This document shows positions 4,147-31,687 of a DNA stretch of 37,357 bases, in pieces (positions within the stretch are counted from its first letter, which is position 1; each line of letters starts with the position of its first letter). The notes under the pieces were generated by a model. It ran no database searches. It was not told where the DNA came from and worked only from the letters and a program-made list of their open reading frames with translations. The position numbers were made by a program, and so were the translations under genes. The stretch covers positions 1 to 37,357 of the IMG/VR virus record IMGVR_UViG_3300031520_000199; one strand, 5' to 3'. This stretch comes from a virus (Duplodnaviria > Caudoviricetes).

Positions 4147-4545
4147 TTAACCGTCCTCGGTGATAAGTCTCTCAATGTACCCGGAGGCATTGCCGGTGGC
4201 TTTGGCCTTGTCCCATGCCTCATCCGAGATCGTAATGCCGTGCGTTTCCTTCCGACCTTCCGGCTTGACGCTTCCGGGCGGACGGCCAGGCCCGCGCTTG
4301 CGGTGATAGAAGCCGAGCCAGAAGCTAGATTGTTGCTCGTTAGACAAGGCTTCGGGCATCTCGCCAATCCCTGTGACCAGGGCGGAGATTTCGCCGTTTT
4401 CGCCGTCGCCGGTGGCGCGAGCAATGGCCGGGAGTAATGTACCGCGCAGATTGTGGGTGACGGCAACGGCGGAGTGGTCATCCGCCCAGCCTGCCGAAAT
4501 CAGCAGGTTGAGAAGCTGGCCCATCATGTAGGCGGGTTCGCGCAT
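4147..4545 (-). CDS. Cas11/Cas8c-C-terminal-like domain fused to AT-hook and ribbon-helix-helix; candidate Acr/Aca
   Basis: PAYMMGQLL...MPEALSNEQQSSFWLGFYHRK resembles Cas8c C-terminal motifs; then RGPGRPP and THGITISDEAWDKAKATGNASGYIERLI (RHH); RBS GAAAGGA. Confidence 0.65.
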   Translation of the reverse strand: MREPAYMMGQLLNLLISAGWADDHSAVAVTHNLRGTLLPAIARATGDGENGEISALVTGIGEMPEALSNEQQSSFWLGFYHRKRGPGRPPGSVKPEGRKETHGITISDEAWDKAKATGNASGYIERLITEDG

Positions 4546-4557
4546 CAGTGTTTCCTT

Positions 4558-4794
4558 TCAGTCTTGGTCTGCTTTGATAGGCAGGCTTGATTTGATGGTG
4601 TGCGGGTGAGAGGAGCAGTACCAGTCCAGCATTCGGGCGGTGGCGACGGGGCCAAAGCCCTGCCGCCATAGTAGCTGCACAAGGTCTTCCATGCCGGGCG
4701 GCTCTGGGGCATCGTTCTCACGCGCCGCCTGCGCTTTTTTGCGCCAATTGGCATCCGGGTGCATGGTGCGGCCCTGGGAGAGTTTTTCGGGCAT
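4558..4794 (-). CDS. Small hypothetical protein (78 aa), candidate anti-defence
   Basis: ATG 4794 after AAGGAGG; middle gene of the operon. Confidence 0.7.
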   Translation of the reverse strand: MPEKLSQGRTMHPDANWRKKAQAARENDAPEPPGMEDLVQLLWRQGFGPVATARMLDWYCSSHPHTIKSSLPIKADQD

Positions 4795-4807
4795 GGCAGC
4801 CTCCTTG

Positions 4808-5137
4808 TTAGGCGAGGAGGGCGGGGAGATTGGGGCCGTTGGTGTGGCGGTTGTCAATCCACCAAGCCGCGCTTGTCTGCGTCATGACTTTGTTCCACCC
4901 GGCCACAACCGGGGCGGCGGCGGCGCTGATTTCGTCTTCCGTCATCTGGCCTTTGAGCGAGACAAGCACGTCGTCAAACCAGCAGAAAAACTCTTTGCCT
5001 GCGCTGAGCCGGATGGTGCGCGCCCAGTTGATTTGTTTCTCGCTGCCAGCCAGGGCGGGCAGAGCGGCATCAGGGTTCATTTTCTCGATGGTGGTGTTGA
5101 AATCTTCGTAGGAGTAGGTTTTTGTCTCGGTAATCAT
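4808..5137 (-). CDS. Small phage protein with GSEKQIxWAxxIR...WWIDNR motifs, candidate anti-defence
   Basis: RBS AGGAG; motif pair recognised from small mobile-element proteins; first gene after a strong promoter. Confidence 0.75.
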   Translation of the reverse strand: MITETKTYSYEDFNTTIEKMNPDAALPALAGSEKQINWARTIRLSAGKEFFCWFDDVLVSLKGQMTEDEISAAAAPVVAGWNKVMTQTSAAWWIDNRHTNGPNLPALLA

Positions 5138-5173
5138 TGCAGCGCTCTCCTGTGTTTCGTGTCTTATGTATTT

Positions 5174-5221
5174 ATTATACTCTAGTATTTAATTGTTGTC
5201 TATAGGTTTTATACTCTAGTA
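5174..5221 (-). promoter_or_regulatory. Strong promoter with two 13-bp operator boxes
   Basis: Minus strand TAGACA (5202-5197), 17 nt, TATAAT (5179-5174). TTATACTCTAGTA is repeated exactly at 5175-5187 and 5209-5221, each containing the palindrome TACT-nn-AGTA. Confidence 0.8.
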
Positions 5222-5334
5222 AAATATATTTTCACAACTATTTTTTCAGGCTCAAAATTGCACCCACACAATCCCGCACTGTTGCCAGCCTAGAGAAGCG
5301 CCTCAGGAATGGCATAATAGAAGTGCGGCCCTCG

Positions 5335-5478
5335 CAGGGCGCGGGTAGTTGTTTTATCTGTTATCAACCGCCCGCGCCCTTCTAATTTGCGTTGACCTGC
5401 GCAAAGCCTGGGCACAGGACGCGGGCGGCTGTTTTCTTTCTCATTGGTTTTCAGCCGCCCGCGCCTTCCTAATTTGTG
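5335..5478 (+). ncRNA. Two tandem homologous stem-loops at the head of the late region (candidate structured RNA)
   Basis: Units 5335-5391 and 5415-5478, about 16-bp stems, each followed by CTAATTTG; compensatory change GTTG/CAAC vs GCTG/CAGC. Confidence 0.5.
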
Positions 5479-5653
5479 TTTGTGCCATGCGGTGATTGCT
5501 TTCGCCCCTCCCGCGTGACTGCCCCAGCCAGCACCCTGCCCTACTTGGGTCTGCTATCGCTGGCACTGTTTTTTGCCATCATTATATTGCCGCCTCCAAG
5601 CCGTCCACTTTTGGGCGGCTTTTTTGGCGACTCGCTGCACTCGTACATTTACC

Positions 5654-5935
5654 ATGCTGCAAACCACTCCCACAGCCACGCCGCGCCGCGCCCTCCTGAC
5701 GCCCACCCACACCCGCGCCGGACGCCGGCTTCGTGTGCCGCAGGCCACCGTGTCCGGCGCGGCCCGCGCCGCCATCGCCGCGCTGTCGGTTGCTCCGCTC
5801 CATCTGGCGGCCACCACCACCGCGCGGCCCGATGTGTACGCCGCGCTCCTAGAATGGGGGCCGAAGGCCCGCATTGGACGCACGCGCAGCCGCATCCTGT
5901 ACTGCGAGCGGTTTCCCATCCCCAAAGAGGCGTAA
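5654..5935 (+). CDS. Hypothetical basic protein
   Basis: ATG 5654; stop overlaps the next start (TAATG). Confidence 0.45.
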   Translation: MLQTTPTATPRRALLTPTHTRAGRRLRVPQATVSGAARAAIAALSVAPLHLAATTTARPDVYAALLEWGPKARIGRTRSRILYCERFPIPKEA

Positions 5936-6177
5936 TGGTGGCAGACAGCACTTTGGAGCAGTACGCCAAGTTTTTGCGCCTGCGGGACAGCAACCCCGCG
6001 TTCTGTTGGGGTGTGATCGCCAATCTGCCGGATGTGGACACCGAGCGCGCGGCCAGCTTGATGGGCGTGCCCGTGCCCGAAGCGGCGCACCAGTTGCACG
6101 AGGCGCGGCAGAGGCGAGTGCCCGGCCAGCAGTCCGGCTTCGCCCTGCACGTCCATCAAAAACGGAACAAACGATGA
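5935..6177 (+). CDS. Small protein with possible sigma-region-4-like HTH
   Basis: RBS AGAGG; TERAASLMGVPVPEAAHQLHEARQR fits an HTH pattern; ATGA overlap with the next gene. Confidence 0.55.
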   Translation: MVADSTLEQYAKFLRLRDSNPAFCWGVIANLPDVDTERAASLMGVPVPEAAHQLHEARQRRVPGQQSGFALHVHQKRNKR

Positions 6178-6446
6178 ATGCACCCAATAGTGCTTCCAGC
6201 GCCGAGGCTGCGCCCATCATGGATACGTTTTTAGACACCAATGCGGCAGTGGAAAGTGTTCGCCAGGCCTATGATGGCGTATCAAACAAGCCGCGCCCGG
6301 AATGGGTGCGCGGCGAGTGCCCGCAGTGCGGCGATGCTTTGGTTTCCAATTGCTACTATGTGGGTGGGCGCGGTTATTTAGTGATCTGGGAATGTTGGTC
6401 GTCGCTGGGAGCCAACCCGACCTGCACGTACCGCAAAGTGCTGTGA
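6174..6446 (+). CDS. Zn-ribbon protein
   Basis: CPQCG...WEC...CTY. Confidence 0.65.
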   Translation: MNAPNSASSAEAAPIMDTFLDTNAAVESVRQAYDGVSNKPRPEWVRGECPQCGDALVSNCYYVGGRGYLVIWECWSSLGANPTCTYRKVL

Positions 6447-6684
6447 TTAATGTGTGTGGCCGAGGAACAGGTAAGCGCGGTGTATTCCAGGACGTTCCTT
6501 CATGCTTCCCGCCGCCCCACACATTAACCAAGTTTCATCGTTTATTTTAGCGATAGAACGCCCATGCCGATGTGATCGGCATGTCCACTGCATATGCCGA
6601 TTTTTTGTGCGAATGTCGGCATGTGCCGCTGCGGGTTACATCCCTTGACTTGAAAACTTGATTCTCACCCCCTTTTTTAACGAT

Positions 6685-7188
6685 ATGGCGAACGGTCACG
6701 GCGGCGCGCGCGATGGCGCGGGCCGCAAATCCAAAGCGGAAGTTTATAAGAGCGAAATCCAGACGTTTAACGACGCCTGTGCGCAGTCGCTCCGGCAACG
6801 CTTTGACGCGCTGGACGCGCTGGCAGAAGGGGCAGAACGCACCGAAGAGCGCTACGAGCTAGCCTTGTCGCTCACGGTAGACGACACCGAAATGAACCCC
6901 AGTGGCGTGGTGGTCAAAATCAAGCGTCAGTTGTTTCCCCATGCCGGGCCGGACGAAATGAAGCTGGTGGAACGCAAGGTGGTCACGCTGGAGCCGGACC
7001 GCGCGGCCAACGAGTACCTGGTGGATCGCGTGATGGGCAAGCCGGTGCAGCAGGTAGACCTACCGGAAGACAGCAACGTCGGCGGCGCGCTGCTGGAAAC
7101 GTTCGGCGGGTCGCTTGTCAAGGCTTATGGCGACGATGGAATTGACGACGGAGGCGCAGCGCCAGAGGGCGCAGCGGCAGGCGGCTGA
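6685..7188 (+). CDS. terS: Putative terminase small subunit
   Basis: N-terminal HGGARDGAGRK, C-terminal DRVMGKPVQ; overlaps the terL start. Confidence 0.65.
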   Translation: MANGHGGARDGAGRKSKAEVYKSEIQTFNDACAQSLRQRFDALDALAEGAERTEERYELALSLTVDDTEMNPSGVVVKIKRQLFPHAGPDEMKLVERKVVTLEPDRAANEYLVDRVMGKPVQQVDLPEDSNVGGALLETFGGSLVKAYGDDGIDDGGAAPEGAAAGG

Positions 7189-8572
7189 ACGGTACGTCCT
7201 CGCAGCGCAGGCGGCGGGGTGTCCACGAGAGCAGATCGCAAACTTCTTGCGTGCCGGCGTCGTGCTTCAGCCGAAACAGCTTGAGGCATCGTCGAAAGCG
7301 CGGCTTTGTGACGTCCCGCTTGGCCCTACCAAGATCGGCTTTGGCGGGGCGCGCGGCGGCGGCAAATCGCATTGGATGCTGTCCCAGATGGGCGCGGACG
7401 ACTGCATTCGCTACCCCGGCCTGAAATGCCTGCTGCTGCGCAAGGTCGGCAAAGCCCTCAAAGAAGGCTTTGCCGACCTTTTGCCCAAAGTTCTGCCGAA
7501 CGTTTCCTGCAAATATGTCCCGTCGCGCTCGCTGCTGGTCTTTGAGAACGGCAGCCAGATTGTTCTGGGCCACTTCCAAAAAGAGTCGGACATTGACGCT
7601 TATCTGGGGCTGGAATACGACATCATCGGCACGGAGGAAGCCACCACGCTTTCGGCGTCCAAGCGCAAGAGCATTTCTACTTGCTGCCGCACGTCCAAAC
7701 CCGGCTGGCGTCCCCGCGAGTACGACACCACCAACCCCGGCGGCGTTTCTCACGCGCAGTATAAAGCCCTCTATATCGTGCCCTTCAAGGCAGGCAAGGA
7801 AAGCACGACCCGGTTTGTACCGAGCACGGTGGACGACAACGCCTTTGTCAACGCGGAATACACGCAGGTGCTGTCCACGCTGACGGGCTGGCAGCTCCGG
7901 GCCTGGCGGTACGGGGATTGGGACATTGCGGCGGGGCAGTTTTTCACGACGTTTCGCGCCGACATCCACGTGCGCGAAACGCGTCTGGGCAAAGATTGGC
8001 CCGCGTGGGGCAGCCTGGACTACGGGTTTACTCACTACACGACGGCGTACCTGATGGGGCTGGACGCGGACGGCGTGCTGCATATTGCGGACGAGCACGC
8101 CGAGCGAAAAAAACTGCCGCAGTGGCACGCGCCGGGAATCCTTGCGATGCTGGAGCGCAATGGCCGCACGCCGGGCAGCTTGCGCGACTTTGTGGCCTCG
8201 CCGGACGCTTTTTCGCAGCGCGGCACGGGCGCAACCATTGCCGAAACCTACGAAGACAACGGCCTGCGGCTGTGGCCCGCCAACAATGACCGCATCAACG
8301 GCGCGGGTGAGTTTCTGGCGCGGCTGGGCGACGTGGACGCGGTGGATAAAAACGGGGAGCCTGCCCCAACTGCGCCGCGCCTGGTGATTGACCCGCGCTG
8401 CGCCCGTCTGATTGAGTGCCTGCCCAATTTGGAACACGACCCGCACCGACCCGAAGACGTGCTGAAAGTGGACGCGGACGACGAGGGCCTGGGCGGGGAC
8501 GACTCTTACGACAGCGCGCGCTACGGGGTCATTGAGGCCCCGGTGCGCCGCCAGTCGTGGTTTGTAGTTTAA
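7127..8572 (+). CDS. terL: Terminase large subunit
   Basis: Walker A GGARGGGKS, Walker B IIGTEEA, TTNPGG; nuclease LDYG and DDSYDSARY. Confidence 0.95.
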   Translation: MATMELTTEAQRQRAQRQAAERYVLAAQAAGCPREQIANFLRAGVVLQPKQLEASSKARLCDVPLGPTKIGFGGARGGGKSHWMLSQMGADDCIRYPGLKCLLLRKVGKALKEGFADLLPKVLPNVSCKYVPSRSLLVFENGSQIVLGHFQKESDIDAYLGLEYDIIGTEEATTLSASKRKSISTCCRTSKPGWRPREYDTTNPGGVSHAQYKALYIVPFKAGKESTTRFVPSTVDDNAFVNAEYTQVLSTLTGWQLRAWRYGDWDIAAGQFFTTFRADIHVRETRLGKDWPAWGSLDYGFTHYTTAYLMGLDADGVLHIADEHAERKKLPQWHAPGILAMLERNGRTPGSLRDFVASPDAFSQRGTGATIAETYEDNGLRLWPANNDRINGAGEFLARLGDVDAVDKNGEPAPTAPRLVIDPRCARLIECLPNLEHDPHRPEDVLKVDADDEGLGGDDSYDSARYGVIEAPVRRQSWFVV

Positions 8573-8575
8573 TCT

Positions 8576-9856
8576 ATGTCCTTTTGGAACTCGCTCAAAA
8601 CCGTGATGACGACCCCCATCGGGAGGGGCGTGGCGCTGCCGTCGGGCAATGGCAATTTGCACTGGTGGGGCGACGGCACGGGGCCGATCTGGGGCAGCCT
8701 GGGCGCGCGGCCCGGCCTGGACATGAGGGCGGCGGCGGGCGACGTGAGCCAGAACTCCGTCGTGTCGGCGGCAGTGAACTGGCTGGCAACATCCTGGATG
8801 GAAGCGCCGCCCCTGGTGGGCATGAAGCAGGCCGGGAAGTTTGCGCCGAAAGCAGCGCATCCGTGCGCCCTGCTGCTCGCGCAGCCCGCGCCGGACTTTG
8901 CGGGGCAATGGCTGACCTGGGCGCTGCTGACCGACTACTTCCGCGATGGAAATGCCTACTGCCACATTGTCATGGGCCTGCGCGAGCCGGGGGAGCTGCA
9001 ATACTTGCCCGCCCGCTGCATAAGGCCTGTTTCGGACGCCCAGGGGAGGCTGGCGTACTACGAATACAAGCCGAAAGCGGGCACGGTCTATCAGCTAGAC
9101 CCGGCGCGCGTGGTGCATTTTCGGTTTGGGGTTGACCCTGGCAACCTGCTGCGCGGCGTGAGTCCGTTCGGCCCGGCCTCAGTGGAGATTGTGTCGGACA
9201 ACGCGGCGGCGGCGTATCCGGCCCACCTGCTGCATCACGGCGGCGTGCCGCCCGGCGTGCTGGTGCCGGAGCCGCCGCAAAAGGACTCCCGCACGGAGCC
9301 GATGACGCGGGAGGTGGCACAGACGCTCAAAGACGATTTCAACGCCAAGCGCCGGGCCACCCCCGGCGAAATCCCGATCCTCTCGGCGGCGCTGAAGCTG
9401 ATCATGCTGGGCTACAAACCGTCCGATATGGCCCTGCTAGAAGTGCGCACGATGCCGGAAACGCGCATCTGCGCGCAGATCGGCATCCCGCCCATCGTCC
9501 TGAACCTGTATTCCGGCCTCCAGCGCTCCACGTTTGCCAACATGGAGGAAGCCAAGAAAAGCGCGTGGACAGACGGCATCATCCCGCTGCAAACCCTGTT
9601 CGCGTCCGAGTGGACGCGGGTGCTGCTGCCCCTGTTTGGCAACTCGCACGGCCTGGTGGTGGGGCATGACTACTCCAAAGTGGGCGTGCTGCAAGAGGAT
9701 ATGACGGCGAAGCGCCGGCAGGCGCTGGACGAATACAACGCAGGCCTGCTGACCTACGAGGAAGCCCGCAGCGAGGGCGGACGGGATACGCCGGAGGGCC
9801 AGAAGCCGGGCGCGCCGCCTGTGCCCATTGTGGAGAAAGACCCACCCCAATTATGA
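8576..9856 (+). CDS. Portal protein (HK97-like)
   Basis: DGNAY, VVHFR, GVSP, GGVPPGVL, ICAQIGIPP, TFANMEE. Confidence 0.93.
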   Translation: MSFWNSLKTVMTTPIGRGVALPSGNGNLHWWGDGTGPIWGSLGARPGLDMRAAAGDVSQNSVVSAAVNWLATSWMEAPPLVGMKQAGKFAPKAAHPCALLLAQPAPDFAGQWLTWALLTDYFRDGNAYCHIVMGLREPGELQYLPARCIRPVSDAQGRLAYYEYKPKAGTVYQLDPARVVHFRFGVDPGNLLRGVSPFGPASVEIVSDNAAAAYPAHLLHHGGVPPGVLVPEPPQKDSRTEPMTREVAQTLKDDFNAKRRATPGEIPILSAALKLIMLGYKPSDMALLEVRTMPETRICAQIGIPPIVLNLYSGLQRSTFANMEEAKKSAWTDGIIPLQTLFASEWTRVLLPLFGNSHGLVVGHDYSKVGVLQEDMTAKRRQALDEYNAGLLTYEEARSEGGRDTPEGQKPGAPPVPIVEKDPPQL

Positions 9857-10089
9857 TCATCTTAATGAATATTCCCGCGTCGGAGACGGCGCATATCCAC
9901 AAGAACCTGACTGGAGACAAGTTCGCGTGGGTTGGCCCGGCGACGGGCTACGTGCAGATTTCGGATGCGTTCGCCGCGTCGCCGGAGTTTGCCCGTCTGC
10001 CGTGGAAGCTGCGCAAAGTGGGCGTGCCGCCGCAGAAGTCACCGCGCTGTACCTATTACAAGCGCGTTGTGGAGCGAAAAACTAAATGA
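9853..10089 (+). CDS. Hypothetical protein
   Basis: ATGA overlaps with both neighbours. Confidence 0.6.
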   Translation: MIILMNIPASETAHIHKNLTGDKFAWVGPATGYVQISDAFAASPEFARLPWKLRKVGVPPQKSPRCTYYKRVVERKTK

Positions 10090-10898
10090 ACACGGAAGAC
10101 CAAATTGTTTTCGGCGGCTCCGTCAAGGCGCTGGGCGATGGCAGGTACGAGGCCCCGCTCGTGACTTTCGGCACGGCACATCGGCCTGACCTCGCGCGGG
10201 ATTTTTTTACCAAAGAGACGAACTTCTGGACGGACTTTCCCCGCGAAGTGCCGCTCCTTTATTCGCACGGACTGGACGCAACGCTCAAGGCCACGCGGCT
10301 GGGTGTCGGGGGCACGACCACGCTGGAAATGAAGGACGGCGGCGTGTGGATGGTGGGCCAGCTCAACCTTGCCAATGAGTACGAAAAAGCCATTTACGGC
10401 CTGATCGAGCAGAAAAAGATGGGCACCAGCAGCGGCAGTGCGCCGCACCTGGTGGAGCGCGTCGCCGAGGGCAAAGCGTACAAAGTGCTTTCGTGGCCGA
10501 TTGTGGAAGCGTCGCTGACCCCGCAGCCATGCGAAAGCGCCAATTATGGGCGCGTCGTGTCTGTCAAGAGCCTGCCCGAACTGCTCGGCATCAAGGCTGT
10601 GCCGGAGACGTCTCCGGCAGCCACACTTGCCAGCGTGGAAGCAGAGGCGGAAACCGCGCTGGCGGCTGTCAAGGCGCTCCAAGCGGGCATGACCGCCCTG
10701 CCCCTATCCGCCATTAAAAGCGGGCTGTCGCCGATGCTTCGCAGCAAAATCGGCAGCGTCTCGGACGGCCTGCTGGACCTGCTTGGCATGGTGACAGCCG
10801 ACGACCGGGACGCGCTGGCAGCCGAAGCGGCCATTTTGCGCGCCGTCACCAGCGAAGCCAACGATCTCTATTACGACGCCCTCTACGACTGGGATTAA
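10086..10898 (+). CDS. Prohead maturation protease with possible scaffold tail
   Basis: LLYSHG, GTSSGS, WPIVEASLTPQPCE; lies between portal and capsid. Confidence 0.85.
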   Translation: MNTEDQIVFGGSVKALGDGRYEAPLVTFGTAHRPDLARDFFTKETNFWTDFPREVPLLYSHGLDATLKATRLGVGGTTTLEMKDGGVWMVGQLNLANEYEKAIYGLIEQKKMGTSSGSAPHLVERVAEGKAYKVLSWPIVEASLTPQPCESANYGRVVSVKSLPELLGIKAVPETSPAATLASVEAEAETALAAVKALQAGMTALPLSAIKSGLSPMLRSKIGSVSDGLLDLLGMVTADDRDALAAEAAILRAVTSEANDLYYDALYDWD

Positions 10899-10935
10899 TC
10901 CCAGTCGTTTAACTTCCATAATAAAGGATGTACAC

Positions 10936-12189
10936 GTGGACTATAAAGCACTAGAAGAGCAGCGCAAAACGAAGGCTGCTGAGCTTAAAACGCTGCTGGA
11001 CAAGCACAAAAACGACAAGGGCGAGTATTTGCCCACCCTGGATGTGAAAGAAGTCCAGGCCCGCAACGCCGAGCTGAACGACATCGGCGAAAAAGCGGAC
11101 GCCGCCCGCGCCGTCAAGATGGCGGAAGACAACGCGCTGAAACACAACCGCGTGCAGGTGCCCGCCAATCACAACCCCAATTATCAGCATCCCAAAGGCG
11201 GGCCGGAAGAGCCGGGCACGGCGCAGAAGACGCTGGGCGAGATGGTGATTGAGGCGTGGGGCGGACGCTCCGAGCAGAACCCGGACGCTTTCAAAAGCTA
11301 CGTGCCGGGCAAGGAGGTGCGCGGCGAAATCAAGCACGTGGATGTCAAGACGCTGATGACAACCAGCTCGGGCTTCGCCCCTGCCAACAACCGAGGCCCG
11401 GTGGTTGTTCCGTTCGGCCTGCGCCGCCCGGTGATCGCCGACCTGATCCCTTCGGACAACACAGACGTTTCGCTTGTGCGGTACATGGTGGAAACCACCT
11501 TTGACAATGAGGCCGCGCCGGTTGCCGAGGGCGCGCTCAAGCCGCAGTCGGGCCTCGGCTTCACCGAGCGGCAGTCCCCGGTGCAGAAAATCGCGACGTG
11601 GATTCCCGTCACCGACGAACAGCTCAAATATGTCCCCGGCGTCCTGTCCCTGATTGACAACCGCCTGACCCTGATGGTCAAGCTCACCGAGGAAGTCCAG
11701 CTCCTGCAAGGCAGCGGGGTAGCCCCGAACTTGCAGGGCTTTTTGACCACGCCGGGCGTCGGCGTAGTGGCGGCGGACTATTCGGGCCTGAACAACACAC
11801 CCGACGCGGTGTACCAGGCGTTCACCAAAGTGCGGAGCATCGGGTTTGCCGAGCCGAACGGCGTGGTGATCCACCCGGTCAACTGGCAGAGCGTGCGGCT
11901 GCTGAAAACAACCCAAGGCGCGTACATCTACGGCGACCCCTCGGTGGAAGGCCCGGAGCGGTTCTGGGGCAAGCAGGCGATTATCACCACGGCCATTGCC
12001 CAGGGTACCGTCCTGACCGGCGACTATGCGATGTATAGCCACATCAGCCGGGGCATGGACATTATGGTGGAAGTCGGCTTTATCAACGACGACTTTGTGC
12101 GCAACCAGAAAACCATCCGCGCCGAAGAGTATCTGAGCCTGGAAATCTACCGGGCGTCGGCGTTCTGCAAGATCAGCGGCGTCGTTTAG
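10936..12189 (+). CDS. Major capsid protein (HK97 fold with N-terminal delta domain)
   Basis: GTG after AAAGGA; N-terminal coiled coil; VAEGALKP, KIATWIPVTDEQL, QLLQGSG, IRAEE. Confidence 0.95.
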   Translation: MDYKALEEQRKTKAAELKTLLDKHKNDKGEYLPTLDVKEVQARNAELNDIGEKADAARAVKMAEDNALKHNRVQVPANHNPNYQHPKGGPEEPGTAQKTLGEMVIEAWGGRSEQNPDAFKSYVPGKEVRGEIKHVDVKTLMTTSSGFAPANNRGPVVVPFGLRRPVIADLIPSDNTDVSLVRYMVETTFDNEAAPVAEGALKPQSGLGFTERQSPVQKIATWIPVTDEQLKYVPGVLSLIDNRLTLMVKLTEEVQLLQGSGVAPNLQGFLTTPGVGVVAADYSGLNNTPDAVYQAFTKVRSIGFAEPNGVVIHPVNWQSVRLLKTTQGAYIYGDPSVEGPERFWGKQAIITTAIAQGTVLTGDYAMYSHISRGMDIMVEVGFINDDFVRNQKTIRAEEYLSLEIYRASAFCKISGVV

Positions 12190-12200
12190 TCACCAAATCG

Positions 12201-23079: not shown

Positions 23080-26000
23080 ATGTCCAACTACTTTGACATT
23101 GAAGCCCGCTTTTTCTCGCGGGCGACTGGCCTGCGCCTAGAGGTCAACCCCGACGACATCCTGCAAGTGGCGTGGGAGGAAGTCGAGGCAGGCGGCACAG
23201 GGCAGATCACGACGGAGCTGGCGCGGCCTTATGACGACCTGAACTGGCCCGTGCAGGGCGGGGACACCATTGAAGTGTGGGCGCTGGGCACGGGCGAGAC
23301 GACGCCGCGCTGCCGGGGAGCGGTCGGGCAGTACGAAAAGGTACTGGACCTCAAAGAGCGGTTTTTGCTGACCTCCTACGGGCGCATGGAGGACATGAAC
23401 CGGGTCGTGCTGGACCGCATCCTGCTGCATCCGGGCGGGGCGGACCTCAGCGTCTTCGTGGGACAGATCGCGGACGATTACGCGGCGCGCAGGCCCGGCC
23501 TCGCGTTCGTGCGGGACATCCAGTTTGTCAACGTCTCGCTAGAGCAGCTTGCACAGACCAACGCGACCGCACGGGCGAGCATGGACCAGATTGCGGCCCA
23601 GGCGGGCGGCAACGTGGTTTGGGGCTGGGACATCGACCCGGCCAGTGGGCTGGACAGGTTTTACCTGCGGCCTAAGACGGACACCATCGGCGAGCAGTTT
23701 TTTGTCGGCGCGAGTGTCAAGATGATGTCTGCGCCGTCCGAGCTGCAAAACCTCGTCAACGGCATTAAGCTCCAGGGTGGCCCGGCCAAATACCCGCAGC
23801 TTTTGACCAACCCCAGCCTGGAAGTGCCCACGCTGCCGGGGGAGGCGGGCGGGAACCTCCTTACCGACGGCGGCTTTGAGTTCGGGATCGCCTGGCATTA
23901 CGGCGGTGGGGCCTCGCGCGTCTCGCAGCACGATATCTCTGCACACAACACGACGGCTCACACAGGCAACTACTATGCCCTGCTCGACCATGCCGGCGAG
24001 GAAATCTGGCAGGAGTGTGCGGCCACGCAGGGCAAGACGTACCGGGCCAGCCTGTTTGACTCGCGCGAGTCGGGGAGCTTTGCCAGCCAGGGCACGCTGA
24101 TTATCGAGGGGCGCAGCGCGAGCGGGGCCGTCCTGGAAACCTATAGCCTGCCGCTCGCGCCTGCCAGCACGGCCTGGACGGGCGGCCAGGGCAGCACGGT
24201 GCTCGCCAGCGACGCGACGCAGCTTTCAGTCACGTTTGGCAGCCCGGCCACGACGACGGCGCGGGTGCGGGTCGTCTCGTCCAATGGCTCGAACACGAAC
24301 GGCCTGTGCATTGACGACGTGACGTTTGCGGATGCGGCGTCGGTGGGGCAGGTGGGGTGGTTTGCCAATGCGCGGGACGGCAAGACCATCGGGTCGCAGT
24401 TTGCGACCCTGGACTGGGCGTGCGGCGGGGCCGCTTGGGAAGGCGCCTATGGATTGCGGGCACGCGTGACGCCGACCTCCCAGTGGAACCCGGCCATTGA
24501 GCCGTATCCGGGCCTGGACGGCCACAATCAGGGCTTCCATTTTAAGCCCGCGCCGCAGCAGGCGCTGCGAGTCGGCGTGCGGGTGCGCATGGCGCCGGGC
24601 CTCGCGACGGGCGCGGGCCAGGTGCGCGCGGAGTATGTGGAATGGGCGGGGGACGGACACCAAACGCAGCGGATCAACGGGCCAGGGGTGACGATCCCCA
24701 ACGACGCCCTGTGGCACTTTGTCTACCAAGACGTAAGCGCGCACGGGGATGCGGCGTCGGCGACGGTGGGGCTGACATTTGGGACGGGCGGCGTGTACGA
24801 CGTGGACGGCTGGACGGCCCGCGACCGACAGGCAGGCGAGGGGGCAGACCCCGCCGATCCTCTGGGCGTACAAACCTTCCTCCGGGGCACCAATTTTGAG
24901 ATTTACGTGACGGCGGAGCAGGTGTGTCCGGTCGGCAGCGACGCCTACAACTCGTTTGCGATCTACGGACGGCAAGAAGCCGTTGTCAGCAACGACCAGA
25001 TCGTAGATTGGAACGCGGACGCGAAGCAGTGGGCGGCAGCGTATTTGGGGCGCGTGGCCGTGCCGCTGGTGCGCCCGCAGGTGCAGCTCGACCATGAGCC
25101 GGCGCGGCGTCCGAACCCCGGCCAGGGCACGCAGGTGCGCATCAGCGGCACCGCCACCGACTTGACCGATTGGTGCGCCAAAACGCGCTACGCATGGGCC
25201 AAGCTGCTGCTGGGCGTAACATTAGAAATGAGCAGCGACCGGCCTACCTGGGCCAAGCTGCTGCTGGGCATCAATAGCGGCGGGGGCGGAGGCAGCGCGT
25301 CCAGCATCGCGGCGGTGGCAAAAGGCGGGGGCGGGGGAAGCACCACGACGCCCGCGCCTGCCTATTTCGGCACGATCCCCCACACAAGCGCCGATGCCAC
25401 GCTGCACGACGCCTATTTTGCCGCGCCGCACGTGCCTCCCGCCACGGGGGACGGACAAACCCTGCGCTGGAATGCCGCCACCAGCGCTTATGTCGCCGAC
25501 CCGCTCGCGGTCAACAACGGCACGGGGACACTGACCCTCACCGCCCTGGGAGGCTCCAACACTGGCCTGACGCTGGTCAACCAGGGAACCACCGGCAACG
25601 ATTTTCCCGCCATTGCCATCGGCTCGCATGACGCGTACAGCACCATCTACGTGACCAACCACGGCCATCCGTTAGGCTGTATCACGGGCTACTATACGGT
25701 TGCCTCCGATGGATACCGCTTTCTCGGCGCGGACGGTACGGCGATTTTCTCAGGTTGGCAGAACGGCAACTGCACGGCAAAAGGCTTGTTTCAGGCAGGC
25801 GGATACGCGGCCAGCGACGGGACGGCGGGGGTCACCGGCACGGGCGGCGGCGGGGATACCATCAAAAACGGCCTGGTGACTGCCCTGGGCACACCCTCGG
25901 CAAGCGTCACGCTGTCCCAAGCTGTTCCGTCGGCAGAAACGGCAGGCACGGCGGGCAGCGTGGGGACGGCCACGACGGCGGCGCGGGCCGATCACGTACA

Positions 26001-27123
26001 TGCGATGCCTGCCGCCTACCCGCCGACCGCGCACGCGGGCAGTCACGGGGCGGGCGGTAGCGATCCGGTCAGCCCGGCCAGCATCGGCGCGGAAAGCACA
26101 GCCAACAAAGGCGCAGCGAATGGCTACGCCGGGCTGGACGCCAGCGGCAAAATCCCCACCAATGCACTGCCCGCCTCAGTCGTGGGCGGGATGGTGTATC
26201 AGGGGGCGTGGGACGCCAACGCCAACAGTCCCGCTCTAGCGAGTGGCACCGGCACGAAAGGTGCGTACTACAAAATCAGCGTGGCTGGCAGCACAACCCT
26301 GGACGGAAACAACGGCTGGCACGTAGGCGACTGGGTTGCATTTGACGGCGCGACCTGGGACAAGATCGACAACTTTGAGGCGGTCACCAGCGTCGCCGGG
26401 CGCGTCGGCGCAGTCACGCTCGCCACTGCGGACATTGCGGGCCTGGGCACGGCGGCGGTCGCTAACGTGCCTGCGGCGGGGAGCAATGCGTCCTCGGCGC
26501 AGGTGGTACGCGGCGACGATACGCGCTTGGGAGCAACGACGCCGCTTGCCACCACGATGCCAGCCGCAGAAACAGCGGGCGCGGCAGGGACGGTCGGCAC
26601 CAGCACCAGCGCGGCGCGCGCCGACCATGTGCATCCTCTGCCGGGGCCGTTCGCAGCCTCGGGGACAGGCCACGCGGCAGGGTTTGTGCCTGATCCCGGC
26701 GCGGCGGCAGGCAGTGCGCGGTTTCTGCGGGAGGATGGGGGCTGGCAGGTGCCTGTTTTGCGTCAGGCGACTGTCACCTTGTTTTACGGAGGCACACTGG
26801 CTACCGGGCTGTCGGGCCTGCCCTACTGCGTGCCGCCCGGCGTGACGCTCACAGTGACGGGGTTGCGGCTGCGCCTGGGCACAGCCGGGACAACCACGAC
26901 CAGCATCAACATCCAGAAATCCACAGGCGGCATCAGTGCCGCCTTCGCCGCTGCCGCAACAAGCCAAAACCTCTCGACAGCCACGGCCACGGCTCCCGGA
27001 GGCACAACCGACGCCATCGCCCCCGCAATGACATTTAACGCAGGCGACTTGATCGACCTCAACGTGGTCACTGCGGGGACGGGTGCCAAGGATGCCCAGG
27101 CCGAGTTGATCTGCACCTATTGA
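23080..27123 (+). CDS. Tail hub/central fibre with CBM-like domains and a low-complexity C-terminal fibre
   Basis: N-terminal hub-like region; LLTNPSLE and NLLTDGGFE CBM-like starts; fibre motifs ANKGAANGYAGLDASGKIP, YQGAWDA, VTSVAGRVGAVTL, ARADHVH twice. Confidence 0.85.
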   Translation: MSNYFDIEARFFSRATGLRLEVNPDDILQVAWEEVEAGGTGQITTELARPYDDLNWPVQGGDTIEVWALGTGETTPRCRGAVGQYEKVLDLKERFLLTSYGRMEDMNRVVLDRILLHPGGADLSVFVGQIADDYAARRPGLAFVRDIQFVNVSLEQLAQTNATARASMDQIAAQAGGNVVWGWDIDPASGLDRFYLRPKTDTIGEQFFVGASVKMMSAPSELQNLVNGIKLQGGPAKYPQLLTNPSLEVPTLPGEAGGNLLTDGGFEFGIAWHYGGGASRVSQHDISAHNTTAHTGNYYALLDHAGEEIWQECAATQGKTYRASLFDSRESGSFASQGTLIIEGRSASGAVLETYSLPLAPASTAWTGGQGSTVLASDATQLSVTFGSPATTTARVRVVSSNGSNTNGLCIDDVTFADAASVGQVGWFANARDGKTIGSQFATLDWACGGAAWEGAYGLRARVTPTSQWNPAIEPYPGLDGHNQGFHFKPAPQQALRVGVRVRMAPGLATGAGQVRAEYVEWAGDGHQTQRINGPGVTIPNDALWHFVYQDVSAHGDAASATVGLTFGTGGVYDVDGWTARDRQAGEGADPADPLGVQTFLRGTNFEIYVTAEQVCPVGSDAYNSFAIYGRQEAVVSNDQIVDWNADAKQWAAAYLGRVAVPLVRPQVQLDHEPARRPNPGQGTQVRISGTATDLTDWCAKTRYAWAKLLLGVTLEMSSDRPTWAKLLLGINSGGGGGSASSIAAVAKGGGGGSTTTPAPAYFGTIPHTSADATLHDAYFAAPHVPPATGDGQTLRWNAATSAYVADPLAVNNGTGTLTLTALGGSNTGLTLVNQGTTGNDFPAIAIGSHDAYSTIYVTNHGHPLGCITGYYTVASDGYRFLGADGTAIFSGWQNGNCTAKGLFQAGGYAASDGTAGVTGTGGGGDTIKNGLVTALGTPSASVTLSQAVPSAETAGTAGSVGTATTAARADHVHAMPAAYPPTAHAGSHGAGGSDPVSPASIGAESTANKGAANGYAGLDASGKIPTNALPASVVGGMVYQGAWDANANSPALASGTGTKGAYYKISVAGSTTLDGNNGWHVGDWVAFDGATWDKIDNFEAVTSVAGRVGAVTLATADIAGLGTAAVANVPAAGSNASSAQVVRGDDTRLGATTPLATTMPAAETAGAAGTVGTSTSAARADHVHPLPGPFAASGTGHAAGFVPDPGAAAGSARFLREDGGWQVPVLRQATVTLFYGGTLATGLSGLPYCVPPGVTLTVTGLRLRLGTAGTTTTSINIQKSTGGISAAFAAAATSQNLSTATATAPGGTTDAIAPAMTFNAGDLIDLNVVTAGTGAKDAQAELICTY

Positions 27124-27191
27124 GGGCCTGCACCTATTGATGGTCTGCACCGACTAACGCCACGAACCATTGCTCGGCAAACTGACTTACT

Positions 27192-27404
27192 ATGGCCGTC
27201 AACATCGAAAGCCAGCCGTCAACCCTCAGTGCGGCGGCGGCCTCTCATATCCCTGGCAATGCCGAAAGCCAGCCGTCCGCTCTCAGCGCGGTGGCATCCG
27301 TGCTGGTGCCAACCAACACGGAAAGCCAGCCGTCGGGCCTGAGTGCCACGGCGACAGCTCTCGCCGCCGCACGTCGGCGCGCGCCTTATGCCATCTTTTA
27401 TTAG
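27192..27404 (+). CDS. 70-aa protein with three NxESQPSxLSAxA repeats
   Basis: 57-nt period (27201, 27258, 27315) with synonymous differences between copies. Confidence 0.7.
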   Translation: MAVNIESQPSTLSAAAASHIPGNAESQPSALSAVASVLVPTNTESQPSGLSATATALAAARRRAPYAIFY

Positions 27405-27435
27405 CCGGTTATTTTGTTATTAGCGAGAACCGCCC

Positions 27436-28149
27436 ATGTCTGCCAATCCAACCTCCGCACGCGTGTCGGGCACGACCGGCTACACCCCGGCCAATCCCGG
27501 CACCAACGCTGCGGACGGCTCTGAGTCGACCGTCGTTGACCTCAATTATGTCACGCAGGGAACGACGGACACGCTGATGATTGACCTCGGAAGCGCCAAA
27601 AACGTACAGGGGATCGACCTGTATAACTACTATACGGTGCCGGCCACGCCCTACGCCTACATCGACGTGTTTGTCAGCAACGACCCTGCCAACCCTACCC
27701 AGGTCAACGCAGGCCGCATCATCAACGGCGCATCGGTTCCCGGCGCGCCCAGCAACAACGCGGTGCGCCTGACGTTCACCCAAAACGGTTATCGCTATGT
27801 GACATTGTCGCCGACCTTCCTCGCCAATGTCCCGGCGGGGCAAGGCAGCCCGCGCGCGTGCATTGTCTATGTGGGAGAAATGCTGGTGGAGACGAGCGGA
27901 ACCCCGGCTGCGCCCACCAACGTCACGGCGACAGGAAATGTGGGGGGGATTGCGGTCGCCTGGACAGCCAGCAGCAGCGCAACCTCCATGCCGGGGCTAT
28001 TCTACCGAGTCAAGCGCGCTTCCGGCACCGGTACTGGGCCGACCACGCAGATTGCCGACAATGTCACAGGCACAAGCTACAGCGATACCAGCGCCGGCGC
28101 GGGCCAGCCTTTCTCGTATGCCGTCACCGCCGTCAACCCGAACGGTTAA
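27436..28149 (+). CDS. F5/8 type C (discoidin)-like domain plus FN3 domain lacking its last strand
   Basis: AADG...LMIDLG...YRYV; then PAAPTNVTAT...AVAWTAS...YRVKR...TSYSDT...YAVTAVNPNG-stop. Confidence 0.8.
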   Translation: MSANPTSARVSGTTGYTPANPGTNAADGSESTVVDLNYVTQGTTDTLMIDLGSAKNVQGIDLYNYYTVPATPYAYIDVFVSNDPANPTQVNAGRIINGASVPGAPSNNAVRLTFTQNGYRYVTLSPTFLANVPAGQGSPRACIVYVGEMLVETSGTPAAPTNVTATGNVGGIAVAWTASSSATSMPGLFYRVKRASGTGTGPTTQIADNVTGTSYSDTSAGAGQPFSYAVTAVNPNG

Positions 28150-28162
28150 CGAAACGTCAAGG

Positions 28163-28915
28163 TTAAAGAGGCATTTTGCGCAGGACGCACATGAACTCGG
28201 CCCCGTTGGGTGTCAGCCGTTCCACCTGAACGGAAGCGAGATGCGCCAGGTGGTCGACCACCTCGCGAAACGTTTCCACTGTCCAAACGTGGTAATGCGT
28301 GTCTTCATCGGCCTCCAGCGCCTGGTTGACGCGAGATTCCAGTGCGGAGTCTTGCAGGCCGTGCCGGTGCGCGAAAAACTCCGCAAAGTGTCCTCGTCGG
28401 GACCAGGCAGGCCCATCTTCGTAATCGCGCACCACGTGGCTTAGAGGAGTCAACGGGCGACCGGCATCAAACGTGTGCCGCGCGTCGGGGATAGCCAGAA
28501 ACAGGATGCCCCCAGGCCGCAGGACGCGCAGATGGCTGAGCAGTGTCCCTATCGGGTCTTGGCAGTGCTCCAGAAAGTGGTTGGCGACCACGAAGCCCTG
28601 CGAGGCATTCGGGATTGTTTCCAGGTGTTCGCCATCGTCAATGATGTCCACATGAACGAGTGGCTGACCGTCTAAGTCCGTATAAAGTGCGCGTGATTGC
28701 TCTCGTGTGCGGCGGTCCACATACGAGACCTGCACGCCGTGCGGCAGGGGCTGAGGAAAGTTCAGCGCGCCGATCTCCAACCCGCGCCCTTGCAGAAACT
28801 CAGCGGCGAGCCGACACCGCACGGCGCTGTGGGGATGCGGGCCGGGAAATTGCCGAAAATAAGCATGGGCCAGAGGGCGAAGCATTTCCCTTAGCCGCTT
28901 GATGGGGTTAGACAT
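28163..28915 (-). CDS. Class I SAM-dependent methyltransferase (moron)
   Basis: GRGLEIGA, NHFLEH, LRVLRPGGILFLAIPD; antisense to the tail operon. Confidence 0.9.
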   Translation of the reverse strand: MSNPIKRLREMLRPLAHAYFRQFPGPHPHSAVRCRLAAEFLQGRGLEIGALNFPQPLPHGVQVSYVDRRTREQSRALYTDLDGQPLVHVDIIDDGEHLETIPNASQGFVVANHFLEHCQDPIGTLLSHLRVLRPGGILFLAIPDARHTFDAGRPLTPLSHVVRDYEDGPAWSRRGHFAEFFAHRHGLQDSALESRVNQALEADEDTHYHVWTVETFREVVDHLAHLASVQVERLTPNGAEFMCVLRKMPL

Positions 28916-28943
28916 ACGCTTATTCTGACAGAGAAGGAGAATT

Positions 28944-29315
28944 ATGGCAACCATCGTTACCCCTGGCACGTTCGCGCTGCCGGCAGTCAGTGACAACGGC
29001 AGCCGCTGCGTCAATGTAGATTTCGTCGTGTTCGCCGAGGCAAGCGAGAATGCGGGCGACCAGTCGCAGGCGCAGGTGATCGCCGAAAGCGTGCATCCAG
29101 GCGGCTGGGCAGCTACCCTCTCCGCCGACTTGACGCAGATCACCATCACCATGCCGGTGGGCACTGCGCCGGGCCTTTACTCCGCGCACCGAACTGTGCC
29201 GGGCAGCAGCACGCAGAGCGAAGGCGCTTTTTTCCGCGTCCAACCCGTTCTGACGCTGACGGCCACGCCACAGATCGTGGGTGGCAAGCCGTCGATTTTG
29301 CTTCAGGGACAGTGA
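28944..29315 (+). CDS. Ig-like beta protein ending in two FN3-like strands
   Basis: RBS AAGGAG; TQITITMPVGTAPGLY; C-terminus LTLTATPQIVGGKPSILLQGQ. Confidence 0.7.
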   Translation: MATIVTPGTFALPAVSDNGSRCVNVDFVVFAEASENAGDQSQAQVIAESVHPGGWAATLSADLTQITITMPVGTAPGLYSAHRTVPGSSTQSEGAFFRVQPVLTLTATPQIVGGKPSILLQGQ

Positions 29316-29370
29316 CCGTTTCGACCCGTAGATGTGGCCTAGACCATGACAATGCCCAAGATTAACAGAC

Positions 29371-29397
29371 AGTCAGCCCTTGCGGGCTGGCTTTTTT
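29371..29397 (+). terminator. Rho-independent terminator between the tail and lysis genes
   Basis: AGTCAGCCC-TTGC-GGGCTGGCT followed by TTTTT. Confidence 0.75.
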
Positions 29398-29542
29398 CAT
29401 TGCTGCGGTGGCCTTCGGCGGAGACTACGGAGAGTTTTTGCCTGCGCGTCGCTGCGTGGTGGGTGCTGATGCTCGCGCCGGGTCTGCACCTGTTTGCCAG
29501 TAACCCGGCGTTCCTCGCCCGCGTCGGCGCGGAGGTGTCACC

Positions 29543-30214
29543 ATGCAACAGCCCCTCCTGATGGGCCTGATGGCCGGCCTGTTCGCCTTGACGACTGCCA
29601 TTTTGACGCTGATTGGCGTGCTGGTTGCCACCAAGTCCAGCTTCAAGTTGGGGAAGCGCAGCGGCGATGTGCAGCAGCAATCGGCGGACACCACGCGCAT
29701 TGAGCAGCTTGTCGGGGAGACAGAGGCGCTGCGCAAAGAAATACGGGCGCTTTGGGCCGACAACACCGATTTGCGCCACAAGTTCGAGATGGCCGAAAAA
29801 GGCCACGAAGGCGAACGCGACCTGTGGGCGGCAGAAAGGCGCACGCTGACCGACAGGCAGGAAGCCGAGAAAAGCGCCACGACAGAGCGGCATCAGGCTG
29901 AGAAAAGCGCCACGACAGAGCGGCATCAGGCTGAGAAACTCGCGATGATTGACCACGCCGCCGCTGAGCTGCGGCAGGTGGCGACCGAGACGGTCAGCCT
30001 GCGGGCCGAAAACGCCGACCTGCGCCAAAAACTTGCAGAGACGGCCACGCAGATGGGACGCACGCAGGCCGAATTGGAGGCAGCGGTGCGGGGGCAAGCG
30101 CAGTCGGAAGCCGCACTGTCACAGGCACGGCGCACCATCACCGAAAAATTGCACGGCTCGGAAGATAATTGCTCGGAAGATAATTGCTTGGAAGATAAAG
30201 GAAAAACGCTATGA
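29543..30214 (+). CDS. Membrane-anchored coiled-coil protein (lysis module)
   Basis: RBS GGAGG; one N-terminal TM; long coiled coil with an 11-aa tandem repeat. Confidence 0.75.
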   Translation: MQQPLLMGLMAGLFALTTAILTLIGVLVATKSSFKLGKRSGDVQQQSADTTRIEQLVGETEALRKEIRALWADNTDLRHKFEMAEKGHEGERDLWAAERRTLTDRQEAEKSATTERHQAEKSATTERHQAEKLAMIDHAAAELRQVATETVSLRAENADLRQKLAETATQMGRTQAELEAAVRGQAQSEAALSQARRTITEKLHGSEDNCSEDNCLEDKGKTL

Positions 30215-30477
30215 AGTTTAATTTGTTGAAGATTAATTTATTGAAAACGCTGGGCCTGGCCCGGCTGCTCCATGGCCCCGTGCTACGCGATCCGCTCTTG
30301 AAAGCCCTCGCGCAGGCGGAAATCAATCGCGCCCTGGACGCCGCCCGGCCCGCCCTTAAGGGCGCGGCAGCCGACGCTTTAGGGGCACTGCCGCACGGAC
30401 ACCTCTACGACCAGGCGCGCGAGGACGCGGTGAAAGTGGTTGGGCAGGTGATTGACAACTGGCAGGTGACCCTATGA
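30211..30477 (+). CDS. Hypothetical lysis-module protein
   Basis: ATGA overlaps on both sides. Confidence 0.6.
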   Translation: MKFNLLKINLLKTLGLARLLHGPVLRDPLLKALAQAEINRALDAARPALKGAAADALGALPHGHLYDQAREDAVKVVGQVIDNWQVTL

Positions 30478-30728
30478 AAAGTGAAACTATGAAAAACGCA
30501 GCACATCTGGCCGCCCTGATTGGGCTGGCTCTCATCTATGGCGCGGCGGGCTTTTGCGTCGTCTACGCCTCGTCCAAAAACGTATGGGCGGCGGCGGCGG
30601 CGGGGCTGACCGCGATGGCGGGCTTTTTTGACCCTAAATCGGGGCAGGGCAGCAAGGCGGAGCTGGCCCGCACCATTGTGCAGCAAGTGAATGGGGATCA
30701 AACGCCGGCGGGAGACGCCGCCTCTTGA
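30474..30728 (+). CDS. Putative holin (2 TM)
   Basis: Two hydrophobic segments; two Lys-followed starts (30474 MKS, 30489 MKN). Confidence 0.6.
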   Translation: MKSETMKNAAHLAALIGLALIYGAAGFCVVYASSKNVWAAAAAGLTAMAGFFDPKSGQGSKAELARTIVQQVNGDQTPAGDAAS

Positions 30729-30739
30729 CATAGTCTCCC

Positions 30740-30859
30740 TTGACACTCCGCGACTTCGCCCTCAACATCATGGACAGCCTGGCCGCAAGCATCGCGCTTG
30801 TGGCCTTTTTGCTGCCTCGCCTCAAGAATCTGCCTCGCCTTAAGAATTGGAGAACCTGA
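30740..30859 (+). CDS. 39-aa membrane peptide (below the ORF-track cutoff)
   Basis: TTG start; ...SLAASIALVAFLLPRLKNLPRLKNWRT; stop abuts the next ATG. Confidence 0.35.
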   Translation: MTLRDFALNIMDSLAASIALVAFLLPRLKNLPRLKNWRT

Positions 30860-31288
30860 ATGTACGAACTATCCCCGAAAGAAACACTGCTGCCCCGTGC
30901 GGTCGCGTATCTGAAGTCCCAAGAGGACGTAAAGGGCAAATGCCTGTATTACTGCCGCCTGGCGCTCGCGCTCATTGGCGTTAGCCTGCCGACCGCCGAT
31001 TTGCTGATCAGCAAATACGGGCACTCCACCGCCATCAACGCCTATCACGTCATCAGCGCCGACCCATCCGCGTATGGCCTGGTGCGTGTCACACAACCCT
31101 CGGTGCATCCTATTATCCTCTGCTACTACGACAACTGCGGCAGAGACGAAAATGGCCTGGAGTGCGGACACGTCGCGCTGTGGGAGCAGGCCACGGATAT
31201 TCTGCGGTCGTCCAAAGATTATCCGAACTCCGGCTACTTCAAGTCCCGGCTGGTCGGAATGTTCGTGCCCGCGCCAAAGACATCCTGA
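30860..31288 (+). CDS. Putative endolysin, CHAP/NlpC-P60-like Cys-His peptidase
   Basis: GKCLYYCR and GHVALW; RBS GGAG; last gene of the late operon. Confidence 0.65.
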   Translation: MYELSPKETLLPRAVAYLKSQEDVKGKCLYYCRLALALIGVSLPTADLLISKYGHSTAINAYHVISADPSAYGLVRVTQPSVHPIILCYYDNCGRDENGLECGHVALWEQATDILRSSKDYPNSGYFKSRLVGMFVPAPKTS

Positions 31289-31410
31289 GACCTGAAAGCT
31301 ACCTGTAACACCATGTGACAGGATCGCTTTCAGGCTGGACACCAACCGCCCCTGGCAGCGCAAACCAGGGCGTTTACATAGCATCGTGGCCTGCGGGTCA
31401 CATTGGACGC

Positions 31411-31446
31411 AAAAGGCCCGTAGGAACGCTTCCTACGGGCCTTTTT
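31411..31446. terminator. Bidirectional terminator between the late and early operons
   Basis: AAAAGGCCCGTAGGAA-CGC-TTCCTACGGGCCTTTTT. Confidence 0.9.
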
Positions 31447-31607
31447 GCGCTTTCGGCTGTGCGGGCCGGTTTTGATTTGCGGGCCGGTTTTGATTTGTGC
31501 GGGCCGGAATTGCACCGGCTGCTGCTTTCGTCGGAACCACCGGCAGGGCGTCTATAGCCAGAACCTGCCAGCGGAACAGAGGGACGATCATTAGCTAAAG
31601 GGCAGCA

Positions 31608-31687
31608 GCAACGTCATTCTGCGTGTCACTGTCCACGCCGCCGCACAGTCGTTTCAATCCTCACCCGGCCCGTAGACCCGGTGCAAC
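31608..31687 (-). CRISPR. Type I-C-like solitary repeat / mini-array
   Basis: Minus strand GTTGCACCGGGTCTACGGGCCGGGTGAGGATTGAAAC (31687-31651), a 38-nt spacer (31650-31613), then GTTGC (31612-31608), identical to the repeat start. Confidence 0.8.

Follow-up and report, generated by a model that had tools for sequence, protein, structure and literature searches.

A shortened Cas11c homologue as a candidate decoy subunit, and two lone type I-C repeats, in a temperate phage

The window considered here, that is, the whole stretch of 37,357 nt of the virus record IMGVR_UViG_3300031520_000199 (Duplodnaviria; Caudoviricetes), contains a temperate phage with a short leftward operon whose last gene encodes P0001, a protein that joins a shortened homologue of Cas11c, the small subunit of the type I-C Cascade, to a probable ribbon-helix-helix (RHH)-like tail. 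On balance, P0001 is probably a Cas11c-derived decoy subunit and a repressor of its own operon. The phage also carries two lone repeats of the I-C type, and a preliminary description of this DNA had combined the protein with one of them into a coupled system, in which the phage would supply both guide and small subunit and borrow the rest of the host complex. Protein and repeats are likely two separate stories. The operon consists of the following elements:

4087–4123, minus strand: strong hairpin 3' of the Cas11-like gene, likely the end of the operon (-37 kcal/mol for a 75-nt stretch)
4147–4545, minus strand: last gene, 132 amino acids (P0001), shortened Cas11c homologue, G-R-P linker and RHH-like tail
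4558–4797, minus strand: second gene, open reading frame (ORF) of 79 amino acids without PHROG match, anti-defence candidate by position only
4808–5137, minus strand: first gene, ORF of 109 amino acids, phrog_16123, anti-defence candidate by position only
5174–5221, minus strand: sigma-70-like promoter TAGACA-17-TATAAT, matching 11 of 12 consensus positions
5178–5187 and 5212–5221, minus strand: two TACT-N2-AGTA palindromes at the operon promoter, likely operators

Residues 1–84 of P0001 are homologous to Cas11c, which corresponds to the C-terminus of Cas8c. The single sequence matches Cas_Csd1 weakly (Pfam E 0.013; NCBIfam E 0.005); the profile of its 22-sequence family reaches solved Cas11c at E 1.5e-11, and 18 of the 22 members match PF09709 at E<=0.05. 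The three top fold matches of the P0001 model are I-C Cas11c/Cas8c structures with Z 9.0, the next row having 5.3, and they align 84–90 residues at a root-mean-square deviation of 2.6–3.2, with a Foldseek E of only 0.07. The family profile and the fold bear out the Cas11c-like character given to the protein in the preliminary description. Identity to Cas11c is low (16–23%). Compared with Cas11c (PDB 7kha_K, 8g9s_H, 9jhb_B), P0001 shares the fold and the terminal motifs, but it is shorter, acidic and encoded by a stand-alone gene of a phage operon, neither inside nor beside any cas8c or other cas operon. The span between the conserved glycines is 69 residues (G9 to G78), against 91–99 in 11 Cas8c C-termini, so that the domain is 22–30 residues shorter than host Cas11c with both terminal motifs kept. 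The internal gap takes out a basic helix, and the net charge is -3, versus 0 to +8 in the Cas8c C-termini used for comparison. Judged from the alignment and from what is described of the I-C complex (10.1101/2022.06.15.496202), the helix with the DNA-contacting lysines appears to be cut short by the P0001 linker.

The close relatives of P0001 are 59–63% identical to it, and the profile search yields 32 representatives, some with the N-terminal domain and others with the tail only; P0053, P0058, P0064 and the protein of the locus L013 are members without a tail. Among relatives with DNA context, the close-family scans returned only L013 and the present contig, and the broader ones L161, L162 or nothing. 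In the GenBank phage search P0001 gave only noise, and P0064 matched two unannotated gut phage records. PF09709, a profile insensitive to the short form, found only one full cas8c in 10 virus records. Of 401 genomes of the host phylum, 81 gave a match, almost always through a long Cas8c frame, and no orphan short copy was found among the frames inspected (seven of the eight below 300 amino acids and one of 380), which proved to be genes of cas operons or a match confined to the tail. A paper on a Cas11 mimic of type I-C was not found in a search that mostly did not extend to subscription papers, and table S3 of 10.1101/2023.06.24.545427 may list such proteins. Two I-C operons, L239 and L240 (G129, G435), have the Cas11c part (141 amino acids) in a frame separate from the remaining cas8c. 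The ESM Atlas contains viral clusters of 137–138 amino acids and a 156-residue HTH_3 fusion with a Cas11-like fold, which suggests repeated fusion of Cas11-like domains to different DNA-binding domains.

P0001 is predicted to dock on the C-terminus of Cas8c. The complex model with a host-family Cas8c C-terminus scores 0.81, the best of three controls scoring 0.00, with at least 92% contact agreement between runs and a partner pLDDT (predicted local distance difference test) of at least 84. The score mark applied was calibrated on known pairs, being reached by 116 of 157 solved complexes and by 2 of 215 mismatched pairs. The modelled interface is formed by residues 69–84, the best-conserved stretch of the family.

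The tail (residues ~100–131) consists of a strand-like stretch and two helices, and is found elsewhere by itself as well as joined to different domains. Among named Atlas clusters, the nearest to it are RHH families (0.86–0.89), to be taken as leads only; together with the secondary structure, these leads below 0.9 suggest a DNA-binding RHH-like tail. The TACT-N2-AGTA motif occurs in the window only at the two sites listed above. A promoter with paired motifs, small genes and a terminator is common to the window, L161, L162 and L013: the plan of L161 and L162 differs in the palindrome, and that of L013, though similar, has a direct repeat and the tail-less protein. This plan is an acr-aca (anti-CRISPR and anti-CRISPR-associated gene) layout. 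No solved relative was found for ORF 4808–5137.

The proposed model for P0001 begins with the shortened homologue acting as a decoy subunit that, as the complex model suggests, takes a place on the Cas8c/Cas11 stack of the host. By analogy with AcrIB4, this faulty subunit would block R-loop formation. As in AcrIE10, the RHH-like tail would bind the promoter palindromes and repress the operon, and binding to Cascade may relieve this repression. AcrIB4 is reported to be a homologue of the Cas8b C-terminus that blocks DNA binding (10.1101/2023.06.24.545427), and it has been proposed to replace Cas11 (10.1101/2025.06.06.658234). Both this Listeria protein and P0001 are small viral homologues of the Cas8 C-terminus/Cas11, with binding to Cas8 predicted at the Cas11 site, but P0001, known from sequence and models, belongs to type I-C instead of I-B, is far more diverged and has an internal deletion and an RHH-like tail. 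AcrIE10 is described as an RHH fusion that sits on an inverted repeat with 2-bp spacing and is released by its Cas target (PMC13530269). Compared by description only, it shares with P0001 the two-domain design, 2-bp-spaced inverted repeats over the promoter and small genes in one operon; in contrast, its RHH domain is N-terminal and it binds Cas7*, while the tail of P0001 is C-terminal and its other domain derives from Cas11c. AcrIIA1 is likewise reported to repress its own locus (10.1101/787200).

Several observations weigh against P0001 being a decoy and repressor. The modelled complex resembles solved Cascades, so that its pass may reflect likeness and not binding, and the Cas8c partner comes from another species. 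Of the 23 interface positions on the host side, 20 still have an aligned residue in the phage protein, which does not bear out a 'capping' of the stack. The tail is modelled poorly and has no Pfam match in any of the 22 family members, and the L013 protein, which lacks it, still has paired promoter motifs. Besides, the operon contains no known acr gene, its upstream ORFs matching no known Acr. A rather unlikely alternative is that P0001 works mainly as a Cascade-sensing repressor, so that Cas8c binding frees the operators and switches on the two upstream small genes, which are the real inhibitors. In four viruses its gene comes last, as an aca gene would, after small ORFs that are unrelated; this agrees with such a role, as do the predicted binding to Cas8c and AcrIE10, given in PMC13530269 as a case of Cas-triggered de-repression by an RHH fusion; however, the four tail-less members imply that the Cas11 domain is useful without DNA binding, and the lack of known Acr matches upstream counts here too. 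It could also be that the Cas11-like domain now serves only for self-association in an otherwise ordinary phage repressor that has nothing to do with Cascade. The low identity to Cas11c and the swapping of the tail among many phage proteins would fit, but no other part of the family is as well conserved as the motif predicted to contact Cas8c, and type I-C occurs in the likely host family, which makes this quite unlikely. The decoy and repressor reading is preferred. The recombinase genes and the elements that bear on the host are:

1657–3045, plus strand: tyrosine integrase (Pfam PF00589, E 3e-25), its true start likely after the tRNA
1697–1768, plus strand: tRNA-Lys, likely integration site and left prophage end
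3052–4122, minus strand: second tyrosine recombinase, with its own promoter-like site at 4047–4019
7574–7610, plus strand: TTC and a 28/34 match to an I-C spacer of genome G021, inside the terminase gene

The phage adjoins the tRNA-Lys, and its genes run from the integrase through the short leftward operon and rightward head, tail and lysis-region genes to a long leftward operon; the source contig extends ~6.4 kb to the right of the window. The integrase and the second recombinase lie tail-to-tail. Exact matches to a 31-nt stretch of the tRNA-Lys occur in 12 genomes, 11 of them titled Armatimonadota or Capsulimonadaceae. Because all 12 are members of one 39-genome family, the host, judged from the tRNA match alone, likely belongs to that family, the Capsulimonadaceae. 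Cas8c is present in 10 of the 39 genomes, and arrays of the 37-nt repeat class flank cas5d-cas8c loci. One of 259 host-family spacers, the I-C spacer of G021, matches the phage terminase gene at 82% identity (best shuffled spacer, 70%), beside TTC, which is described as the I-C protospacer-adjacent motif (PAM) (10.1101/2022.06.15.496202). The metagenomes with the phage also contain arrays with similar repeats, three of the five runs listed being possible sources of the phage. I-C is shown for relatives in the family and can only be presumed for the host itself, which also counts against the decoy reading. As the preliminary description had stated, both parts point to type I-C, and I-C systems with repeats of this class occur in the family to which the host likely belongs; its claim that Cas3, Cas5 and Cas7 are missing holds for the 47 of 288 ORFs scanned, and ~6.4 kb of the contig lie beyond the window. 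The lone repeats and their surroundings are:

31407–31450, strand not assigned: terminator-like hairpin where the rightward late genes meet the leftward operon (-33.6 kcal/mol)
31613–31650, minus strand: the 38 nt after repeat 1, called a 'spacer' in the preliminary description, with no closing repeat and no target found
31651–31687, minus strand: repeat 1, lone, 37 nt, I-C-type; Rfam CRISPR-DR9 at E 0.0023, below the gathering score
36436–36472, minus strand: repeat 2, lone, I-C-type; E 0.0003

Repeat 1 is identical to the commonest host-family I-C array repeat at 32 of 37 positions, in agreement with its earlier description as I-C-like. It has one stem mismatch and an intact 11-nt 3' handle, and it is intergenic, 4 nt after the stop codon of ORF 31692–31955. 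Repeat 2, absent from the preliminary description, is identical to the same array repeat at 31 of 37 positions, has a perfect 9-pair stem and one handle change, and lies within the open frame 36304–36738, whose status as a gene is uncertain. The hairpin of the class covaries across 24 distinct copies, 97% of cells being paired versus 34–46% when slid. Both are array-like repeats without a neighbouring repeat in a mobile element. The 'repeat-spacer unit' proposed earlier does not stand, as the covariance model found no second repeat after the 38 nt that follow repeat 1, where only 5 repeat-like letters occur. The sequences after the repeats gave no PAM-flanked seed match of at least 9 positions in 195.5 kb of cas loci of host-family relatives or in the window, and no exact 20-nt match to viral contigs; no promoter-like site was found on the repeats' strand in 30800–37357. 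In other viruses, a lone repeat at L001:3001–3037 has 3 differences in 37 from repeat 2 and a different gene context, two records (L127/L128 and L131/L132) each contain a pair of lone repeats, several of which directly precede a ribosome-binding site, and L134 has a repeat in frame inside an ORF.

The repeats are candidate RNA anti-CRISPRs (Racrs) or scars, and if they act at all, they likely do so as separate RNA decoys, by comparison with Racrs: Cas5d would cut them from the leftward transcript, and Cas7 would be soaked up on the following RNA. RacrIC1 is reported as a lone I-C repeat in a prophage, 11 nt after a stop codon (PMC10651486), and repeat 1 similarly lies just past a stop codon in a prophage, with a subtype matching that of the likely host family; the putative Racrs described here differ in being of the 37-nt class, in being present twice, in lying 27 kb away from the candidate acr operon and not within it, and in having one copy in an open frame. 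The phage repeat followed by a spacer-length stretch also recalls Cracrs and viral crlRNAs, as far as these are described (10.1101/2024.10.29.618823; PMC11656645), but the phage repeats have no PAM-flanked match in the cas loci of relatives, no exact viral 20-mer and no promoter of their own that could be found. Since neither a second repeat nor a promoter or target was found, repeat 1 does not correspond to a Cracr or to a mini-array as those accounts present them.

The coupled system would consist of a phage guide and a phage small subunit, forming a hybrid Cascade directed either at a chosen promoter, as a repressor, or at a competitor, as a killing complex. In its favour, the two parts are both of the I-C kind and occur in the same prophage, and the 38-nt stretch has the length of a spacer (31–43 nt in the host) before its repeat-like letters. 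The Cas11-like operon and repeat 1 are ~27 kb apart, as had been noted, and in different operons. A pattern scan found 23 virus records with this repeat class, of which 20 were searched, three array-only records being left out. The short Cas11 protein was found in none of these 20, in a search that scored the three protein-bearing records at 1e-25 or better, two of them not being in the alignment. Conversely, no repeat of the class was found in the three protein-bearing records (best E 0.2), where a hairpin-plus-tail scan gave eight weak candidates, one of them, of 33 nt in G051, possibly a repeat of another class. The co-occurrence sample, small and mostly fragmentary (with a completeness of 90% or more in only 3 of the 20 records that carry the repeat, and with four near-duplicate pairs), fails to support the linkage, and a local linkage may still exist. 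Thirteen terminase-related viral loci (52–62% identity, up to 10 kb per side), too distant to count, have neither part. As related viruses carry one part and none was seen with both, the repeats likely act independently of the protein. With no target or promoter found for the guide and a host Cas11c that would itself serve any guide, the coupled system is very improbable. For the tail of P0001, binding to the palindromes of its own promoter is a simpler probable role. The two-way block of immunity suggested in the preliminary description is plausible as two independent routes, not as one coupled system; the host check proposed there gave type I-C at family level (10 of 39 genomes and one matching spacer), and the co-occurrence check, in the 20 and the three records, gave none with both parts.

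The same repeat class occurs singly in host chromosomes, in the leaders of metK, mreB, rpsL, gap, a cold-shock gene and others (names read from translations), roughly 20 in ~180 Mb as a lower bound. Some of these genomes have no Cas8c or Cas5d match, and the lone repeats in chromosomes without Cas8c weaken the anti-CRISPR reading of the phage repeats. No orphan Cas5d was found for them, the extra matches inspected looking like I-E or other Cas5, with none in G019, G044 and G012. In metK, 4 of 35 genomes (33 and 2 more) have a repeat in place of the same 8 nt at the 5' edge of the S-adenosylmethionine (SAM) riboswitch (L046, L048, L096 and L098, in G019, G046, G044 and G045). Four changes are needed on the 32-gene metK tree, a single clade being rejected by the approximately unbiased test (p-AU 3e-9). 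The stems differ and the 11-nt handle is identical in all four, and G019, G044 and G045 have no Cas8c match. In mreB, 2 of 29 genomes have a repeat, L043/L249 (G012) and L092/L250 (G016), which has replaced the ribosome-binding region native to the leader; the G012 copy directly adjoins the start codon, with the GGTGAGG of the repeat at Shine-Dalgarno spacing. In rpsL, the repeat is at the same place in 3 of 30 genomes, intact in L094/L280 (G045) and decayed in L286 (G039) and L288 (G038), and a look-alike allele in G042 has no repeat and TTC at the junction. A flag at rpsL of G023 was spurious and was excluded from the count. At the junction, empty alleles of metK have TTA, and look-alike empty mreB and rpsL alleles have TTC; the TTN is patchy, as 2 of the 10 nearest empty alleles of mreB show it and GAAAC stands in its place in several alleles of rpsL. 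No paper on repeats inserted in core-gene leaders was found within the literature coverage given above. Further lone repeats (L100, L041, L037, L087, L090, L095) lie a short way downstream of promoters, those of gap-like, cold-shock, sugar-binding, nuoA-like and other genes.

This pattern suggests a copying of repeats into sites next to protospacers, by which the phage copies would be explained as well; horizontal transfer of a leader may be an alternative source of the chromosomal ones, and the four hits at one metK site still call for an explanation. In the phage, recombination with a host array would have copied a repeat beside a protospacer and erased the PAM, leaving ordinary phage DNA after it. 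This is a serious possibility, if one that falls short of probable. It agrees with the replacement of native leader DNA in the three genes, on four branches in metK, with the TTA or TTC ends of empty alleles and with the position of repeat 2 inside an open frame. Against it stand the patchy TTN, the failure to find an empty allele of either phage site and the density of two repeats per 37 kb, far above that in host DNA, which fits targeting or selection; moreover, a scar could still work as a Racr.

P0001 would, if by a narrow preference, be a new variant among Cas-derived, self-regulating anti-CRISPRs. It would then extend the co-option of cas genes from type I-B to I-C, could be used to turn off I-C editing tools and would mark the place of the uncharacterized small genes upstream, so that these can be located. 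In a wider and rather improbable reading, the Cas11c-RHH family would be a widespread I-C anti-CRISPR, both poison subunit and Cascade sensor, with the operon switched on only in hosts with Cascade, and arrays would, in a separate process not described before, write repeats over the PAMs of their targets. If so, PAM overwriting in phage and host chromosome would explain the origin of Racrs, and repeat writing could rewire core genes, as in a metK SAM riboswitch broken four times independently. A lone prophage repeat need not be a Racr, and the host-chromosome copies bear on how solitary repeats are read; with empty and filled alleles side by side, the metK, mreB and rpsL cases make their origin testable.

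Other features of the window are short tandem repeats at 35756–35838 (23-nt period), 27200–27360 (57 nt) and 32824–32889 (33 nt), the 23-nt set lying directly before a replication-like gene (34638–35750). Two imperfect 61-nt direct repeats (5333–5480), situated between the promoter of the Cas11 operon and the late genes, are possibly a regulatory or packaging site. A methyltransferase-domain gene (28163–29164, minus strand) lies antisense among the tail and lysis genes.

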